From assembly GCA_963819815.1 (NCBI GenBank), contig CAWFXL010000001.1, positions 1,152,001 through 1,216,000 of the forward strand: a stretch of DNA of 64,000 nucleotides, given 5' to 3'. Source of the stretch: an uncultured bacterium (lineage in GTDB: Bacteria > Babelota > Babeliae > Babelales > Babelaceae). The notes beneath the pieces are model-generated. The model saw only the letters and a list, made by a program, of their open reading frames with translations, was not told the origin of the DNA and did not search any database. Both the position numbers and the translations under genes were made by a program. Below, piece after piece: positions 2,457-9,671 of the stretch (position 1 is the stretch's first letter; every line of letters starts with the position of its first letter).

Positions 2457-4643
2457 CTAGAAACTATACTGTAAGCCGATATTAAAGAAGTATGAAGTAT
2501 CATCACCTAGCAAGGGGACCCTATCATTTACGATACCGGTCTTGCCAATGTTTTCGATAAAGTCTTTTTGAGCTCGATTCAGTGGTCGCCCTTTAATATC
2601 TTTATAATGGCTGCCTGGAAAGAACAGTGCACTGACCGAATACAATTTTAGGTCTGGAAGCAGTTCAGCGTCTATAAATATATTGAGCTCAACACCAAGG
2701 AAGGTACGGGCGAACCGACTTACCGATTGTTGATGCGTTTTTAGGTCATGAAATGGTGTTGCAAAATCATTCCAGAACCACAAAACATTGGGGTTAAAGC
2801 TCCATTTACGGGTTGACCAACATGGTCGATACATGCAACCGGTACCCACAAACACTAGATTAGTAAATCGAGAAACAACTGTTGCAAATTGGTTGCGCAC
2901 ATCTTCAGAGGGGAAAGCGAGCGGTCGAGGAATACGTCCCTGGCCACTCAACAAGTAGGCGCTTTTTACACGCGTTCCTGAATAGACTTCTTGAAGGCCA
3001 ATAAACCCTTCATAGACTTCATCTCGAATATGGTCACCACGCTTGATATGATCTTTATTAGGGTTTGGACCACCGCTTGCATACCCAAGGCCAGCACAGA
3101 CCTTAAGATCTGGCTTACATACAAGATAGCCCATATCAAACACAAACATAGAGCCATGGAACTTGTTAGTATACCCGTCACTAAACCGATCTCTATCGTT
3201 AATAAGTATACCCAGACTGTTTACCCCAATCACTTTCCCATTTTCAAGCTGGGTCTCAGGAGATACATCAATAATATCTTGGTTTTCTGGAACATTTAAA
3301 GCAAGAGGCGACTTCAGCGTCGGTTCCTCCCCAGGGGGCGCCTGGCGAACTCTGCTGTTCACAATAACTGCAGTTCCCGCTCTATTTTCAGGTCTAATAA
3401 CGTTACGATCCCACCCACAAACTCTCTGGTGACCAAAGTTATGTGCTGTATCAAAACCCCAATCAAATCGGCCCCAATCACTTTCAGCAGCGATACCTAT
3501 AGTAATAAGATCACTTCTAGCGTCACCGCGGAACTCAATTTTTTGCTCAGGATTATGATTATACAATATATAAGGTTCAATACGGCTCGCAGCATTATTG
3601 CGCCACATCGTGTGTATTTTGAGCCGAGCAGCCAGAAGATAATTAATCACACCAAAACCACGAGCCTGATCATTTCTATGAAAATATTGTTGACACCGTA
3701 TCTTTGCATTGGTCTGAGAAAAGGATGCCCCTTTATTATCTAAAATAGCACCATATAAATCGTAAAATAATATCCCTTTACAAAGCTCACCAGAAAGCTT
3801 GCCTCCAAATGCATATTGATCAACAGCATATTCAGAAATGAATCCTAAATCAGACGCATCAAGAGCATACGCAACTCCTAATGCAATCCCTCGCCCAAGT
3901 TCAAACGGGAAAGCACCGAAGGTTAAACTATGAGGACTTGAAAAGGGAAGACACATAAGATCATTTAACGAAAACTGAATCCACAACTCTCGAATCCAGA
4001 GAAAGTGAAGCGGAATTCCATGGCCATGCTCCCCAAAGGAGGTCCCGAACTCATTAACTGCAGCAGACGTTGTTGAAGCAATAGACTCAGGATCACCCCA
4101 AACCCCTTTGTTACGAATAGTCATCTTAGCATAGACAATGTCGTACGGCACCTTGGGCTGCCCATACCGAAATTGCGTAATGCAATCTACCGTATGACGA
4201 AAATAAATCACCCGATCAGTAGGATTATCGTTATTCAAAAGCCTCAGATTCTTCCCATAAAAGAACTCAGGGAGGCGTAGACGCACTTCAAACTTAAGTT
4301 CGCTATCACCTGGATGAAACACCATGCTTCCTTTTTTAGGAGGCCCAGACGTCTCATCCTTTTTTTCTACGGCTTCTAGTTCATTGGTTGTAGGATTTTG
4401 TGCTTCTTCACCTGTATTGGTCTTCGCCTCCTCATGAACTTCTTGCTTTGCTGGACTACCTGTTGAAGAAGTTTGCTGGACCTGTTGAATCTTCTGAACA
4501 GGAGTTTCATGACCTGCTGCAGCGCCTTTCTTTATTGAAGGTTTATAGCTATGAGAAGATATGCTATCTTGAGCTTTTACGTAAGCATTTGAGCAGATGA
4601 CCCCAAGCCCCATTACTACCTCCAGGCAAAGACGCCGATTCAT
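2457..4643 (-). CDS. putative outer-membrane beta-barrel protein
   Basis: AGAGGAG SD before ATG 4643, signal peptide, low-complexity N-terminus, alternating aromatic beta-strands, C-terminal YFFNIGLQYSF BAM-type signal. Confidence 0.65.
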   Translation of the reverse strand: MNRRLCLEVVMGLGVICSNAYVKAQDSISSHSYKPSIKKGAAAGHETPVQKIQQVQQTSSTGSPAKQEVHEEAKTNTGEEAQNPTTNELEAVEKKDETSGPPKKGSMVFHPGDSELKFEVRLRLPEFFYGKNLRLLNNDNPTDRVIYFRHTVDCITQFRYGQPKVPYDIVYAKMTIRNKGVWGDPESIASTTSAAVNEFGTSFGEHGHGIPLHFLWIRELWIQFSLNDLMCLPFSSPHSLTFGAFPFELGRGIALGVAYALDASDLGFISEYAVDQYAFGGKLSGELCKGILFYDLYGAILDNKGASFSQTNAKIRCQQYFHRNDQARGFGVINYLLAARLKIHTMWRNNAASRIEPYILYNHNPEQKIEFRGDARSDLITIGIAAESDWGRFDWGFDTAHNFGHQRVCGWDRNVIRPENRAGTAVIVNSRVRQAPPGEEPTLKSPLALNVPENQDIIDVSPETQLENGKVIGVNSLGILINDRDRFSDGYTNKFHGSMFVFDMGYLVCKPDLKVCAGLGYASGGPNPNKDHIKRGDHIRDEVYEGFIGLQEVYSGTRVKSAYLLSGQGRIPRPLAFPSEDVRNQFATVVSRFTNLVFVGTGCMYRPCWSTRKWSFNPNVLWFWNDFATPFHDLKTHQQSVSRFARTFLGVELNIFIDAELLPDLKLYSVSALFFPGSHYKDIKGRPLNRAQKDFIENIGKTGIVNDRVPLLGDDTSYFFNIGLQYSF

Positions 4644-4879
4644 AAAAACTCCTCTGTGCGAGAACAAGAAACAATGAACACCAACGCTTGCATTACCCGA
4701 AGCTTACAGAACACTCTGAAAATCCACTGAAAAATAGACTTTTTTAGTGTGACAATCTCTCTAAGTTTATGTTAATATTTACGCGAGATCAACTTGATTT
4801 CATGTCCTACTCACTTTCCTACAAGAAGTAAAAAGGGAAATATTTCCCCATACTCTAAACTTACCAAGCAGGCAAAAAT

Positions 4880-5734
4880 ATGACCCAAAAACATCCTATC
4901 ATTCTTGGAGCGCACATGTCCATCGCAGGAGGCATCGAAAATGCCTATTTGAGCGGCGCTTCAATAGACTGTACGGCAATTCAACTATTTACACATAGCA
5001 ATCGGCAATGGGCAATCAAAGAGCTATCGGCTGACACCATAGAAAAGGTACAAACAGCTCAACAACAGACAGGCATTACCCACGCGGTAGTGCATGCAAG
5101 TTATCTTATCAATGTTGCCTCTACCGATGCCGAAACCAGAAGAAAATCGAAAAATATGCTTCATATGGAGCTCAATCATTGCGCAGCCTTGGGCATTAAC
5201 TTCCTTGTGCTGCACCCAGGATCAAACCCTTCAATTGAAGAGGGAAGCAAGCTCATCAGCGAAGCAATCAATGAAACCTTTGAAAAGAACAGCTCAAAGG
5301 TCACCATTCTCCTTGAAAACATGGCTGGCCAAGGCAGTCAAATTGGCTACCGTCTTGAGCAGCTTGCTACACTCAGACAAGAGATCTCTGCAAAAAAACG
5401 CATTGGCTTCTGTATCGATACGTGCCATCTATGGGCAGCAGGGTATGACTTTTCAGACCATACAGGATATCAGAAGGTCTTAAAAGAGGTGGATACTATC
5501 CTTGGAATTGAGCATATACATGCGATTCATCTTAATGATTCTAAACAAAAGCTCAATTCACAAGTAGATCGTCATGCAAATATCGGAGCGGGAACCATTG
5601 GCCTTGAAGCATTCAGGCTTATTATGAATGATCCTACGCTTAAAAATATCCCAAAAATTCTCGAGACCCCTGGCAAAGAGCTTCACGAGTATGCACATAA
5701 CATGAAAATACTGTTGGATCTTGTAAAGAGCTGA
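4880..5734 (+). CDS. nfo: endonuclease IV (AP endonuclease)
   Basis: LGAHMSIAGG, HASYLIN, LHPG, LENMAGQG, CIDTCH, HLNDSK, DRHANIG, KILETP motifs. Confidence 0.97.
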   Translation: MTQKHPIILGAHMSIAGGIENAYLSGASIDCTAIQLFTHSNRQWAIKELSADTIEKVQTAQQQTGITHAVVHASYLINVASTDAETRRKSKNMLHMELNHCAALGINFLVLHPGSNPSIEEGSKLISEAINETFEKNSSKVTILLENMAGQGSQIGYRLEQLATLRQEISAKKRIGFCIDTCHLWAAGYDFSDHTGYQKVLKEVDTILGIEHIHAIHLNDSKQKLNSQVDRHANIGAGTIGLEAFRLIMNDPTLKNIPKILETPGKELHEYAHNMKILLDLVKS

Positions 5735-5740
5735 ATTTAA

Positions 5741-5902
5741 TAAGAACGTGTAGTTAAAGACCCGTATAATAGCTAAGAAGGAATTGTAGTATATATTACG
5801 AGTCCTTAACTAACACTTTCTTACAAGCAGTGCCTCACCATATAGGAAGTCTAATAACTATTGAAGGGAGAGAAAGATAGTTATTAAAGCTACACTAACT
5901 AG
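5741..5902 (-). ncRNA. putative structured sRNA, sibling copy 1
   Basis: One of three near-identical elements; two stems whose mismatches become G-U pairs only on the minus strand; TAGAAT -10-like hexamer at 5914-5909; ends approximate. Confidence 0.65.
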
Positions 5903-6293
5903 GAAGCAATTCTAAGTTTCTACGAATTTTGCCTAAAAAACAACAGTTTATCTTTCGCAACATTATAAAACAACACAAAAACTGCTATTTCCAGGCGACT
6001 ATTTCCAAAATAACGTATTTTTATTGTAAAAGCAACCACAAAGCAACAAGATTTACCTCGTGCGCTTTCTCATCATTGAAACAATATACAACCAACATCT
6101 CCGCCAAAGTTTTCTACCTGAACGACTACAGGGTGTCTAGCTGTTTTTAACATCACTTGGGTATACCAGTTTTAGGGTTCCCCTATATCAAAAGAGGATG
6201 ATTGCTTGGCCTTAAGAAATCTCACCTGAAGGCATTTTTTCTAAGGCAACTTTGGAAATAGGATGGGATTATGGGGCGAGAAAGAGATGGTAC

Positions 6294-6458
6294 TAAGATC
6301 GTGATAGTTAAAGACCCGCAAATAGCAGCTAAGAAGGAATTGTAGTATACATTACGAGTCCTTAACTAACACTTTCTTACAAGCAGTGCCTCACTATATA
6401 GAAAGTCTAATAACTATTGAAGGGAGAGAAAGATAGTTATTAAAGCTACACTAACTAG
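6294..6458 (-). ncRNA. putative structured sRNA, sibling copy 2
   Basis: Near-identical to copy 1 (AGCTAAGAAGGAATTGTAG, TAATAACTATTGAAGGGAGAGAAAGATAGTTATTA conserved); TAGAAT at 6470-6465. Confidence 0.65.
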
Positions 6459-7045
6459 GAAGCAATTCTAAGTTTCTACGAATTTTGCCTAAAAAACAAC
6501 AGTTTAGTTCCTGCATCGTCAAGCAACAACATAAAAAGGTGGGTACCTACGAGCATTTTTGTCCTTTGGAGTATTTTTTTGCACAAAACAACCTCTTAAC
6601 AACGCTATGTTGCTGCAGAAAAAGCTCCATGATTCTTCTTAAGACAGAGAAACACGGATCAAAAGTTCCCCAACGATGCCTTGTTGTACATCTAGGATAT
6701 TAAGAAACACCTATTACATAAACAATCAAGATCCAGAAAAGTTGAAGGATGAGACTTCAAAATGAACAGCATCTGACAATTTCATCATAGCTTTCTATAA
6801 GAGCTTATGTGATTGCACAAGTCTGCCTGTTTTTCTATGCCTTTTTAATGAGGCCTTGTATCGTCCACAAGGTTGTACAGATCTTTCATGTAGAAAGATA
6901 TAGATTGTAAAAGGGCAATACCTCAATAGAAACGGGTCTAGAGATGCACAACATGTACATAAAAAAATTTCATCGGTTACACAAGCCGATATAAACAAGA
7001 GCAATATGTCATTAGGTGGAAAATTCAGTGAGGTGGCTGATACTT

Positions 7046-7208
7046 TAAGATCGTGTAGTTAAAGACCCGTTAAATAGCTAAGAAGGAATTGTAGAATAAT
7101 TTTAACGTACGAGTCTTTAACTAACACTCTCTTACAAGCAGCTTCTTTAGAGGAAGTTTAATAACTATTGAAGGGAGAGAAAGATAGTTATTAAAGCTAC
7201 ACGCTATC
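7046..7208 (-). ncRNA. putative structured sRNA, sibling copy 3
   Basis: More diverged copy retaining both stems and loops; two G-U pairs replaced by A-U; TAGAAT at 7220-7215. Confidence 0.65.
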
Positions 7209-7482
7209 AAAGCAATTCTAAGTTTCTAGTAATAGTGCACAAAAAACAACAGTTGGTTTTAGAGCACACACCGCAACAACAAAAAGGAGCCTTAGTTTTC
7301 GTTGTTTTTTAAATAGTTGGTCTTTTTCTTGTAAAAACAACCACTGCGCAACAAAAATACCTTTTGCGCACCACTAGCCGCACTTTCTTTCGAATGTGCT
7401 CATTTGTAGAATGTATTCGTAAACCTGTTTGGAACTCAAACAAGAGGGGTCGTGGACAAATCTTGTTGTGTATCACACACTA

Positions 7483-9639
7483 CTATTTTGTTACGGGAAC
7501 TTCTTCATAGCATTCTACACGATCATCGGGCTCAAAATCACTAAACCCTTCTATCATGAAACCACATTCAAATCCCGAGTGAACTTCTTTCACTGCTTTC
7601 TTTTCACGTTGGAGACTCTTAATAGGGCCTTCACCAATCTTTTCCTTACCGCGGTACACCTTTACCTTACCATTACGTGTAAAGCGCCCTTCACGTACAA
7701 TAGAACCCGCAATAACACCAAGATTCTTAATATCAAATACCTTGAGTACTGTTGCTTCACCAATTTTCTTGGTAACCATTTCAACAGGTTTGCCTGATTC
7801 TAAGAGCGCCTCAACTTCTTCTATCAGCTTATAGATGATATCGAAGGTTTTAATGACGACACCTTTTTTGTGCACAAGATCCATGGCATTAGGTTGCACT
7901 TTTACTCCGAACCCATAAATATAGGCTCCTGTATCGGCTGCAAGCATAACATCACTTTCAGTAATATCCCCTACGCCAGACTGAATAATTGAAATAGCAC
8001 CATGTTTAGAAGTTAGACGGGAAAGAGATGCTGCAACTGCCTCGCGCGATGACACATTATCAGTTTTGAGAATAATATCGATATCTGCTTCTCGAGAAGC
8101 ACCAGCTTTGCGCAGCAGTAAGTCAGCTCGCTGCTGAGCAGCAGGGATGCCTTTTTTAATAACTTTTGACGTATGTACCTCAAAAAGATCCCCCGAATGA
8201 GGAAGCTCTGAAAATCCTGCAACTTGCACAGGCACCGAAGGTCCTACTTTTTGTACCCTTTTACCATCAGAAGTAACGAGAGAACTTACACGCCCCGTTG
8301 CTTCACCAGCAATAAAATAATCGCCAACCTTAAGAACACCATGCTGACAAATAACTGTGGCTACTGGGCCTCGACCCTTTTCAAATTTTGATTCTAAGAT
8401 GTACCCGCGAGCTGGAACCGTAACATTCGCCTTAAGATCCATAACTTGAGACTGGAGCACCAGCACATCAAGAAGATCATCTACACCTTGTCCCGTTTTT
8501 GCTGAAATCGGCATGACAATAGTCTGTCCGCCCCATTCTTCGGGAACCAAGTTATGACGCGCAAGTTGACTTTTAACCGCTTCTATTTGAGCAGGAGATG
8601 CTTTATCTATCTTGTTAATCGCTACAACCATAGGAATGCCAGCAGCTTTAGCTGCATTAATCGCTTCTTCTGTTTGAGGCATGATACCGTCATCTGCAGC
8701 TACAATGAGAATTGCAATGTCGGCCACTTTAATTCCACGTACACGTATTAACGAGAAAGCTTCATGGCCGGGTGTATCGAGGAAGATAACCCCGCCCTGT
8801 TTCGTCTTAACATCATACGCGCCTACATGTTGCGTTATGCCCCCTTTTTCACGAGAGGCTACACGTGTCTTACGGATAAAGTCTAGCAGAGTAGTTTTAC
8901 CATGGTCCACATGTCCTATCACAACTACTATAGGCAATCTTTCTTTCCATTCTCCAGCAGCCTCTTGAGAAACTAAGGGCATCTCTTTTGATTGCCGTGC
9001 TGTCTCTTTTTTTACCAAAGTAAGACCATGCACAGTAGCAAGGTCTCTAATTGTTGTTTCAGGTAAAAGCTGAGTCACCGGTGCTGCAATACCTTTCTTC
9101 AGGAGAGCAATAATAATTTCGCTTACAGGAACTCCCGCTGCTGCAGCAAAATCTCCTACCGTCATCGGCGCATCATATGCTGTTCCGGGCTCCAATCCAG
9201 GCTTCTTAGTTTCAGGTTGCTCAACAACCTTCTTTTGAATTACAGGAGTTGCAGCTTTCTGGACTGTCGGTTTAGCCTGTATGGTCGGTTGGCTGGGTTT
9301 TTGTGGAGCTTTTTTTTCTGGAGAAACTTTTTGAACTGGTTCCTGAGCGGCTTCTACTTTTTTAACTGGAGCTTTTTTAGCTTGTTCTTTTGGCTGTTCC
9401 TTAGATTCAGTCTTAGGAGATTCGATCTTAGGTTGTTCTTTTTGAGAAGCAGGTTCTTTGCTCACCGGTTTTTGGACCTTAGAACTTCCTTTGGTCATCA
9501 GCTTTTCTACGAGAGCCTGCGCTTCTGGCGGTACCAAGGCAATACTTGCCAAAGAATAGCCATGCTCCTTCAAAAGATCTATAAGCTCTTTATTGGTAAG
9601 GCCTAACTTCTTTGACAATTCATATACGCGTATCGCCAT
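7483..9639 (-). CDS. infB: translation initiation factor IF-2
   Basis: N-terminal [32 protein letters not shown]-terminal ECG motif. Confidence 0.98.
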
Positions 9640-9671
9640 ATTTTTTTTCCTTAAGTCATGCAACCAAAGAT

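Follow-up and report, generated by a model that had tools for sequence, protein, structure and literature searches.

In a 64,000-nucleotide (nt) stretch of the genome of an uncultured Babelaceae bacterium (GenBank assembly GCA_963819815.1, contig CAWFXL010000001.1, positions 1,152,001 to 1,216,000), here called the window, we analyzed three direct repeats of one element, which we call class A. Judged by their strand bias and fold, the elements are minus-strand structured RNA genes, and class A is very probably a real family of small RNA (sRNA) genes. Covariation indicates that the 21-nt loop of the long 3' hairpin of class A has co-evolved, across at least six families, with the 5' end of a second RNA, class B, encoded elsewhere in the genome, and the two probably pair in vivo. 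With moderate confidence, we regard the repeats as sibling genes for base-pairing sRNAs whose hairpin loop pairs in trans with B, most likely blocking the loading of ribosomes. If so, class A would be the first candidate riboregulator family for the Dependentiae, an amoeba-associated phylum.

Structure and strand of class A

An earlier reading of this DNA, made from the sequence alone, had described three copies of a ~160-nt element, at 5741, 6294, and 7046 of the window, in a region without credible genes. Both a repeat search and BLAST recovered the copies. The repeat search gave three-copy families at 5741-5793, 5797-5830, 5838-5895, and 5904-5948, with partners at +556 and approximately +1306 (copy spacing, 556 and ~750 nt). 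When copy 1 was compared by BLAST with the whole 1.64-Mb genome, there were three full-length matches only (100%, 95%, and 83% identity; E values from 3e-106 to 2e-58). The conserved block extends from the foot of the long hairpin (5741, 6294, and 7046) through a promoter-like stretch, to ~5950, 6506, and 7254. The 170-nt core and the promoter are conserved between the copies and the spacers between copies have diverged; the spacer open reading frames (ORFs; 73, 72, 69, and 55 amino acids) had no Pfam match. In the alignment of the copies, indels fall in loops and linkers, as the sequence-only reading had said of most of them.

The minimum free energies (MFEs) of the minus strands of copies 1 to 3 were -50.8, -51.7, and -44.0 kcal/mol (z values of -5.7, -4.8, and -4.5 against dinucleotide shuffles); those of the plus strands were -38.1, -36.6, and -39.4 kcal/mol (z values of -2.4, -1.9, and -2.3). 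The MFE structures of the minus strand are the hairpins described earlier. Four elements make up the fold, namely the closing stem (UGCUUCC paired with GGUGAGGCA), stem-loop 1 (SL1), a single-stranded linker, and the long stem-loop 2 (SL2). The loops CUUUCUCUCCCUUCA and CUACAAUUCCUUCUUAGCU were unpaired in both the MFE folds and the consensus fold. In copy 3 the closing stem has been remodelled with its pairing retained.

The structure was tested with 23 aligned copies from 12 genomes, for which RNAalifold gave a consensus of 40 pairs. Consensus pairing was present in 96.3% of 915 cells, and in 34 to 53% when the 3' partners were slid by 1 to 3 columns. Changes on both sides occurred in 12 of the 40 pairs (35 cells), and none of 500 column shuffles reached the observed values. 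Read on the minus strand, 108 cells were G-U and 10 were A-C. Because a G-U pair reads as A-C on the opposite strand, this predominance of G-U places the structure on the minus strand. The earlier reading had noted several internal mismatches in the copies that are A-C on the plus strand and G-U on the minus strand. Copy 3 had also been said to convert two G-U pairs to A-U pairs, and these were located at alignment columns 130/188 and 16/101. Across families the 3' hairpin had double changes in 12 of its 15 consensus pairs (42 diverse 3' domains) with the loop invariant, and in 42 sequences columns 1 to 7 of the linker showed little or no variation. The proposal of multicopy regulatory sRNAs is thus supported by the strand, by the structure, and by conservation of the family.

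The partner RNA, class B

The whole-genome BLAST search with copy 1 also gave a fourth match, 22 nt long, perfect, and confined to the SL2 loop, at G000:C1:1001108-1001129 (G000 is the genome that contains the window), 151 kb before the window. The 5' end of B there reads AGCUAAGAAGGAAUUGUAGUA-AUG-AAGC, and the 21-nt SL2 loop is its exact complement. In DNA, the purine-rich motif runs directly into ATGAAGC and is preceded by a promoter-like arrangement, TTGATT, a 17-nt spacer, and TAACCT, the last ending 7 nt before the motif. Across families, class B has a strongly conserved promoter of the form cTTGaTTTTTTT..TAGxxT, then AGCTAAGAAGGAATTGTAGTA(A/G)TGAAGC, and then 30 to 100 variable bases; AGCUAAG begins 7 to 8 nt past the promoter. 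The 5' end of B has the form of an initiation region, with AAGGA, a 9-nt spacer, AUG or GUG, and then AAG.

We searched a sample of 261 genomes of the phylum for class B. The 18-mer of the motif, with up to 1 mismatch, was found in 92 genomes, usually twice per genome, and its reversed control was found nowhere. A B-specific 27-mer with up to 3 mismatches was found in 109 genomes (reversed control, 0); class A loops that also passed were set aside. The start codon, AUG or GUG, was kept in the class B matches of all 109. By family the matches were in 13/40 genomes of f1, 8/16 of f12, 10/10 of f10, 5/5 of f15, 2/2 of f17, 69/80 of f19, and 1/4 of f3, with none in the others. There was one copy of class B per genome, the sole exception being G186 (f19), in which two matches (C2:421673-421699 and C6:38179-38205) stand alongside one class A gene; duplication or mixing of bins might be the reason. 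Class B co-occurred in 68 of the 70 genomes with class A, the exceptions being G022 and G207.

At the ~17 distinct loci examined, the usual order is an rluD-like gene, B, and then, convergent with B, a PLD-like gene followed by a TamB-like gene. Because nothing downstream reads on the B strand, B looks like a stand-alone small transcription unit. In the genome of the window, B (G000:C1:1001109 onward, plus strand; L004:1502-1625) is located between an ankyrin-like gene and the convergent PLD-like gene.

In many sequences the 5' motif of B has a potential pairing partner further downstream, a UCCUU(U/C)UUAGCU-like arm, sometimes with a U-run after it. Of 79 distinct B sequences, 34 had an internal arm of at least 10 nt; when the 5' ends were replaced by composition-matched shuffles, the mean number was 16.5 (maximum of 23 in 20 rounds). 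Unlike many of its relatives, the B of the window's genome has no clean terminator made of a 5' arm and a 3' arm.

Co-evolution of the class A loop with class B

For 40 genomes with both loci in hand, the 18 motif positions of B were compared with the complement of A, giving 720 cells. Of these, 682 were Watson-Crick pairs, 35 were G-U, 1 was A-C, and 2 were other combinations. If the loci were read on the opposite strands, there would be 1 G-U and 35 A-C. There were 12 columns in which A and B had each departed from the motif of the window yet remained a Watson-Crick pair; these compensated positions were 5 (in G186, G187, and G011), 11 (G011), 12 (G220), 13 (G009, G200, and G219), 14 (G065 and G079), and 17 (G079 and G218), and they represent at least 8 separate lineage-and-position events. 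When partners were shuffled among genomes, the mean number of nonpairing cells was 13.0 (standard deviation, 1.3; minimum, 7), versus 3 observed, and none of 10000 shuffles was as good as the true pairing.

Two further observations bear on the pairing. The base preceding the motif covaries by lineage (U-A, G-C, A-U, and C-G), with mismatches in f10. Also, B of f12 has C at motif position 14, from which a compensating base in class A was predicted beforehand; it was present in all 3 of the 3 class A genes found in f12.

Several points weigh against the pairing or limit what these tests can say. Both A and B were collected by their likeness to one motif, so near-complementarity was partly built in; because of this, the case rests on the asymmetry between G-U and A-C, on the compensations, and on the partner shuffle. 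The genomes are related, so there are fewer events than cells. The one-sided changes are A to G and C to U in the RNA sense, which a transcription-linked mutation bias could favor. Furthermore, the loop of a closed hairpin cannot accommodate a helix of 21 bp, and SL2 would have to open. However, neither mutation bias, nor kinship, nor the need to open SL2 explains the compensations or the result of the partner shuffle. Cofolding of A with B gave a net gain of only -4 to -9 kcal/mol; since cofolding cannot model a kissing complex between a loop and an RNA end, this value was not used as evidence.

Proposed mechanism

In the mechanism that we propose, the three sibling class A genes would each be transcribed from their own promoter on the minus strand to give RNAs of ~170 nt. 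The 5' domain of each RNA would expose a CU-rich loop that resembles an anti-Shine-Dalgarno (anti-SD) sequence, followed by the conserved linker (CACUGCUU) and the long 3' hairpin. Transcription of B would start from a strong promoter of its own, at a distance of 151 kb, and the 21-nt SL2 loop, UACUACAAUUCCUUCUUAGCU, would bind the first 21 nt of that RNA in trans. All bases of B ahead of the start codon would then be in the duplex, and ribosome loading on B would be blocked; many B RNAs also hide these bases behind an internal 3' arm, with which A would have to compete. That A and B are transcribed in this manner, where the RNAs end, that A acts on B and not the reverse, and that translation is affected are points that we infer. 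Repression of initiation on B as the outcome falls slightly short of an even call. The conservation of the start codon and of the AAG second codon suggests that initiation on B matters although the peptide does not.

Several findings speak against this mechanism. The reading frames past the AUG or GUG of B, with lengths of 3 to over 20 codons, are conserved in neither length nor sequence. The copies in the window have no clear U-run past SL2, the foot of which is taken as the tentative 3' end; in other families an SL2-type hairpin often has a U-run directly after it. A simple scan for sigma-70 promoters and terminators did not flag the proposed class A promoters. Finally, aside from B, 10- to 12-mer sites complementary to the loops occurred near start codons about as often as did reversed controls.

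Loop 1, other targets, and RNA-binding proteins

Loop 1 of the window copies includes CUCUCCCUU, an anti-SD look-alike, and other families carry a ACUCCUCCUU-like loop of the UCCUCC type in the same place. Loop 1 and these counterparts resemble the 3' end of the 16S rRNA of this genome, GGAUCACCUCCUUUC. Loop 1 probably binds the SD regions of mRNAs. Across the genome there were 82 10-mers complementary to loop 1, against 43 for the reversed control, and a downstream ORF was present in 15 and 6, respectively; for loop 2 the numbers were 112 and 99, with a downstream ORF in 13 and 21. The sequence-only reading had held that the CU-rich loops pair with ribosome-binding sites. For loop 2 this is borne out by its co-evolution with the SD sequence and spacer of B, whereas for loop 1 the search for complementary sites gave no target.

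Two candidate interactions were tried and dropped. The PLD-like gene beside B was considered as a target on account of an 11-nt match at its ribosome-binding site, but the match is not kept in other genomes. Pairing of AUGAAGC in B with GCUUCAU at the 5' end of class A in the genus was likewise abandoned, because class A of f10 lacks GCUUCAU while its B keeps AUGAAGC.

This genome (88% complete) was searched for domains of Hfq, ProQ, and CsrA without a match, while the positive controls were detected; for CsrA the domain sought in G000 was PF02599. The result fits long pairing that is independent of a chaperone. Searches of this genome for the RNase III domains PF14622 and PF00636 were also negative, and among 31 genomes representing 13 families (this one and 30 relatives) PF14622 was not detected in 30, including 29 of the relatives. 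The sole exception was a metagenome-assembled genome (MAG) that is 70% complete; the RNase III controls were detected in 8 of 14 reference genomes. Since RNase III was not found, an A-B duplex, if formed, may work by occluding or refolding the RNA and not through cleavage by that enzyme.

Alternative explanations

The same pairing could work in the reverse direction. B would then be a decoy or sponge that imitates the ribosome-binding site of an mRNA and titrates or destabilizes A, and the real job of A would be to repress many mRNAs via its anti-SD loop 1, which is the logic by which RosA acts on RoxS in Bacillus subtilis. Although we think it rather unlikely, this explanation has several merits. 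It would account for a promoter of B that is strong and conserved together with coding potential that is not, and for the resemblance of loop 1 and its counterparts to the 16S 3' end; multiplication of siblings is typical of regulators with many targets; and RoxS with RosA provides a documented precedent for such an sRNA-sRNA sponge (PMC8216469). However, B binds loop 2, which is distinct from loop 1, and so would not mask loop 1 directly, and no enrichment of loop 1 targets was seen. The excess of B sequences whose motif is buried in an internal arm would be odd for a sponge, and a sponge does not need the start codon that is conserved in 109 genomes.

The resemblance to the translation apparatus also allows a broader interpretation, which we consider improbable. 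A would display one loop like the 16S 3' end and another dedicated to B, B would be a consensus initiation region without a gene, and the two would be matched translation mimics that set the amount of available ribosomes or of free anti-SD-like RNA. If this were true, it would mean global control of initiation in an obligate intracellular phylum.

A poorer candidate is that B is a riboregulated terminator, its 5' motif serving as the first arm of the hairpin, with A binding this nascent 5' arm, preventing termination, and allowing read-through antisense to the PLD-like and TamB-like genes. In several families the 5' motif does pair with downstream UCCUU(U/C)UUAGCU followed by a U-run (e.g., L020, L028, L040, L043, and L046), and B keeps its position facing the convergent PLD-like gene across families. 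Yet an arm of at least 8 nt plus a T-run was found in only 24 of the 79 B sequences, versus 13 of 79 with shuffled 5' ends (a weak test, less clear than that of arm length), the B of the window's genome lacks a clean arm plus U-run, and conserved position can be plain synteny. We judge this explanation very doubtful.

Least credible of all, to the point of being nearly negligible, is that class A is a plus-strand protein sponge with CsrB/RsmZ-like GGA or AGGGA loops, the alternative that the sequence-only reading had offered for CsrA, or else a repeat or mobile element without RNA function: the plus-strand loops are indeed purine rich with GGA and the copies are indeed tandem repeats, but the excess of G-U over A-C assigns the structure to the minus strand, CsrA was not found in the genome (88% complete), covariation across families speaks for an RNA function, and a mobile element such as a miniature inverted-repeat transposable element does not fit a genome of 1.64 Mb with three copies only, all tandem and none dispersed, their core and promoter conserved while the spacers diverged, or the single copy per genome of other families.

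Distribution of class A

BLAST found homologues of class A in all 9 of the 9 other genomes of the genus, with one to four copies each, and weaker matches in other genera. A covariance model was built on the class A 3' domain from motif-bearing sequences. With this model, which may miss diverged members, class A was found in 70 of 151 genomes (f1, 7/20; f10, 7/7; f19, 50/55; f12, 3/13; f15, 1/1; f17, 1/1), and among these 151 genomes there was no match in 12 other families. Outside the genus g1 there was exactly one copy per genome, and the counts within g1 were 3, 3, 4, 1, and 1. The tandem triplication is specific to some species of the genus; it would raise the dose of the RNA. Class A outside the genus keeps the C(A/G)CUGC linker, the lower stem (GUAAUAG.. 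with ..CUAUUAC), and the loop, and the upper stem is wholly changed.

A scan of 185,579 genomes, one per species, for the exact 18-mer gave 87 stretches. The record titles named Dependentiae, Babeliales, or TM6, except for MAGs that were unlabelled or doubtfully labelled and one contig labelled as archaeal; class A was found in Dependentiae only. The archaeal exception, L158, is a 1.4-kb contig labelled Methanomicrobia archaeon that bears the exact 18-mer in flanks without the CACUGC linker, and it is probably a misbinned fragment or one with the motif in a chance context.

Comparison with known systems

Systems of this kind, with sibling sRNAs that have anti-SD loops or with an sRNA-sRNA pair, are already known from the Firmicutes. 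In Listeria monocytogenes, a CU-rich 5' loop and the terminator loop of LhrC1-5 pair with AG-rich SD regions and block initiation (PMC5880928). Class A is like LhrC in having several sibling copies and CU-rich unpaired regions in both a 5' loop and a 3' hairpin loop, a likeness of design and not of membership. It differs in having no sequence or model match (Rfam 15), in belonging to another phylum, in its larger size (~170 nt), and in the lack of a U-run terminator in the window copies. Moreover, the 3' loop of class A is a dedicated 21-nt seed for one conserved partner RNA, whereas the loops of LhrC are said to carry a short motif of the UCCC type.

RoxS (RsaE) is a C/U-rich anti-SD sRNA that also pairs with a small RNA, RosA, and B. 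subtilis is described as having no known RNA hub protein (PMC8216469). Direct pairing between two small RNAs is the common feature, supported for A and B by comparative sequence only. Unlike RosA, B has a complete initiation region (SD, spacer, and AUG or GUG) at its very 5' end, and there is no homology; A and B are also conserved together across at least six families.

A third comparison is with type I antitoxins. IstR-1, which acts on tisB, is reported to match perfectly, over ~20 nt, the complement of the 5' region of an RNA that has a small ORF and a separate locus, and in systems of this type the initiation region of the target is said to be masked intramolecularly as well. The ~20-nt complementarity to the 5' region of B and the internal masking of its initiation region in many sequences are similar. 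However, there is no conserved small hydrophobic toxin ORF, and because the frame of B is not conserved, a toxin is unlikely.

What is unusual in the present case is the combination of a dedicated 21-nt loop with a partner that is an initiation region without a gene, and their co-evolution in at least six families. Identification of a partner by co-evolution in trans is rarely available for bacterial sRNAs, and the system could reveal how RNAs regulate by base pairing when the customary helper proteins are missing. A narrow full-text literature search found no description of small RNAs in Dependentiae.

Promoter-like regions of class A

An alignment of 30 class A loci from several families, in RNA orientation, showed a common promoter arrangement. 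The conserved order is TTTTxTGTTGTTGC, aligned in nearly all class A loci; ~30 nt further on, TTGTTGTTTTTT; then xAxAxT, 17 nt past TTGTTT; and a variable start ~7 nt beyond that. The xAxAxT block is GAAACT in the window, from which the start of the copy 1 RNA is predicted to be near 5908, in exact agreement with the first base of the closing stem. Around the promoter of copy 2, positions 6460-6504 are 100% identical to 5904-5948 of copy 1. The hexamer TAGAAT noted by the sequence-only reading is present just upstream of all three copies (5909-5914 for copy 1), but in other genera a different block is the conserved one, and the putative -10 and -35 elements are instead GAAACT (5915-5920) and TTGTTT (5938-5943).

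The class A promoters of many families have two direct repeats of the TGTTGTT type ~32 nt apart, the second of which is at the -35 position (TTGTTGTTTTTT; 5938-5949 in the window). A regulator of sRNA transcription may bind these repeats, the upstream one of which is represented in the window by the element TGTTGTTGC of Table 1.

Table 1. Positions of class A features in the window
Feature	Positions	Strand	Remarks
sRNA copy 1 (class A)	5741-5908	-	~168 nt; fold z, -5.7; covariation and G-U bias in 23 homologues
Copy 1 architecture			5' domain closed by UGCUUCC/GGUGAGGCA and enclosing SL1; single-stranded linker; 3' hairpin SL2
sRNA copy 2 (class A)	6294-6464	-	~171 nt; 95% identity to copy 1; fold z, -4.8
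sRNA copy 3 (class A)	7046-7214	-	~169 nt; 83% identity to copy 1; fold z, -4.5
Loop 1 (SL1), CUUUCUCUCCCUUCA	5862-5876, 6418-6432, 7169-7183	-	Anti-Shine-Dalgarno-like; MFE folds
Loop 2 (SL2 loop), UACUACAAUUCCUUCUUAGCU	5771-5791, 6327-6347, 7076-7096	-	MFE folds
Linker between domains, CACUGCUUGUAAG	5820-5832	-	Single stranded; C(A/G)CUGC kept in all families
Loop 2 seed, copy 1, UACUACAAUUCCUUCUUAGCUA	5770-5791	-	22-nt perfect complement of B 5' end
Loop 2 seed, copy 2	6327-6347	-	21 nt complementary to B
Loop 2 seed, copy 3	7076-7096	-	First 19 nt of plus-strand text match B; last two differ
Promoter-like region, copy 1	5915-5943	-	-35 TTGTTT (5938-5943), 17-nt spacer, -10 GAAACT (5915-5920)
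Promoter-like region, copy 2	6471-6499	-	-10 at 6471-6476, -35 at 6494-6499
Promoter-like region, copy 3	7221-7249	-	-10 at 7221-7226, -35 at 7244-7249
Upstream conserved element, TGTTGTTGC	6523-6531 (copy 2), 7273-7281 (copy 3)	-	Degenerate for copy 1

The locus and searches for known RNAs

The three repeats lie in a 1.75-kb gap bounded by a gene for an AP-endonuclease-2 (nfo-like; 4880-5734, plus strand) and infB (7483-9663, minus strand), after which comes nusA. The sequence-only reading had recognized no known family, and the database searches agree. An Rfam 15 scan of positions 5000 to 8000 at E values up to 10 gave only four chance matches to microRNAs or long noncoding RNAs (E values from 2.4 to 8.4), and scans of related loci at the gathering threshold and at E values of ≤1 gave no family match. 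A scan of the window for tRNAs and transfer-messenger RNA (tmRNA) found none. Since the tmRNA (C1:1058578-1058946) and the signal recognition particle RNA (C1:104071-104162) are located elsewhere in G000, A and B are not those RNAs. Class A was also considered as a 6S RNA, and this was rejected: the Rfam 6S model, RF00013, had no match in G000, and class A has two separate hairpin domains, not a single long rod with a central bubble.

Two other features were observed near the copies. The nfo-like gene is adjoined by an ORF of 736 amino acids (2457-4667, minus strand) that had no Pfam match at E values up to 0.01. A scan of 5500 to 7700 found a single terminator-like site, a hairpin followed by a T-rich tail (6037-6062, minus strand); it is located in the spacer that separates copy 2 from copy 1 and could end read-through from copy 2.

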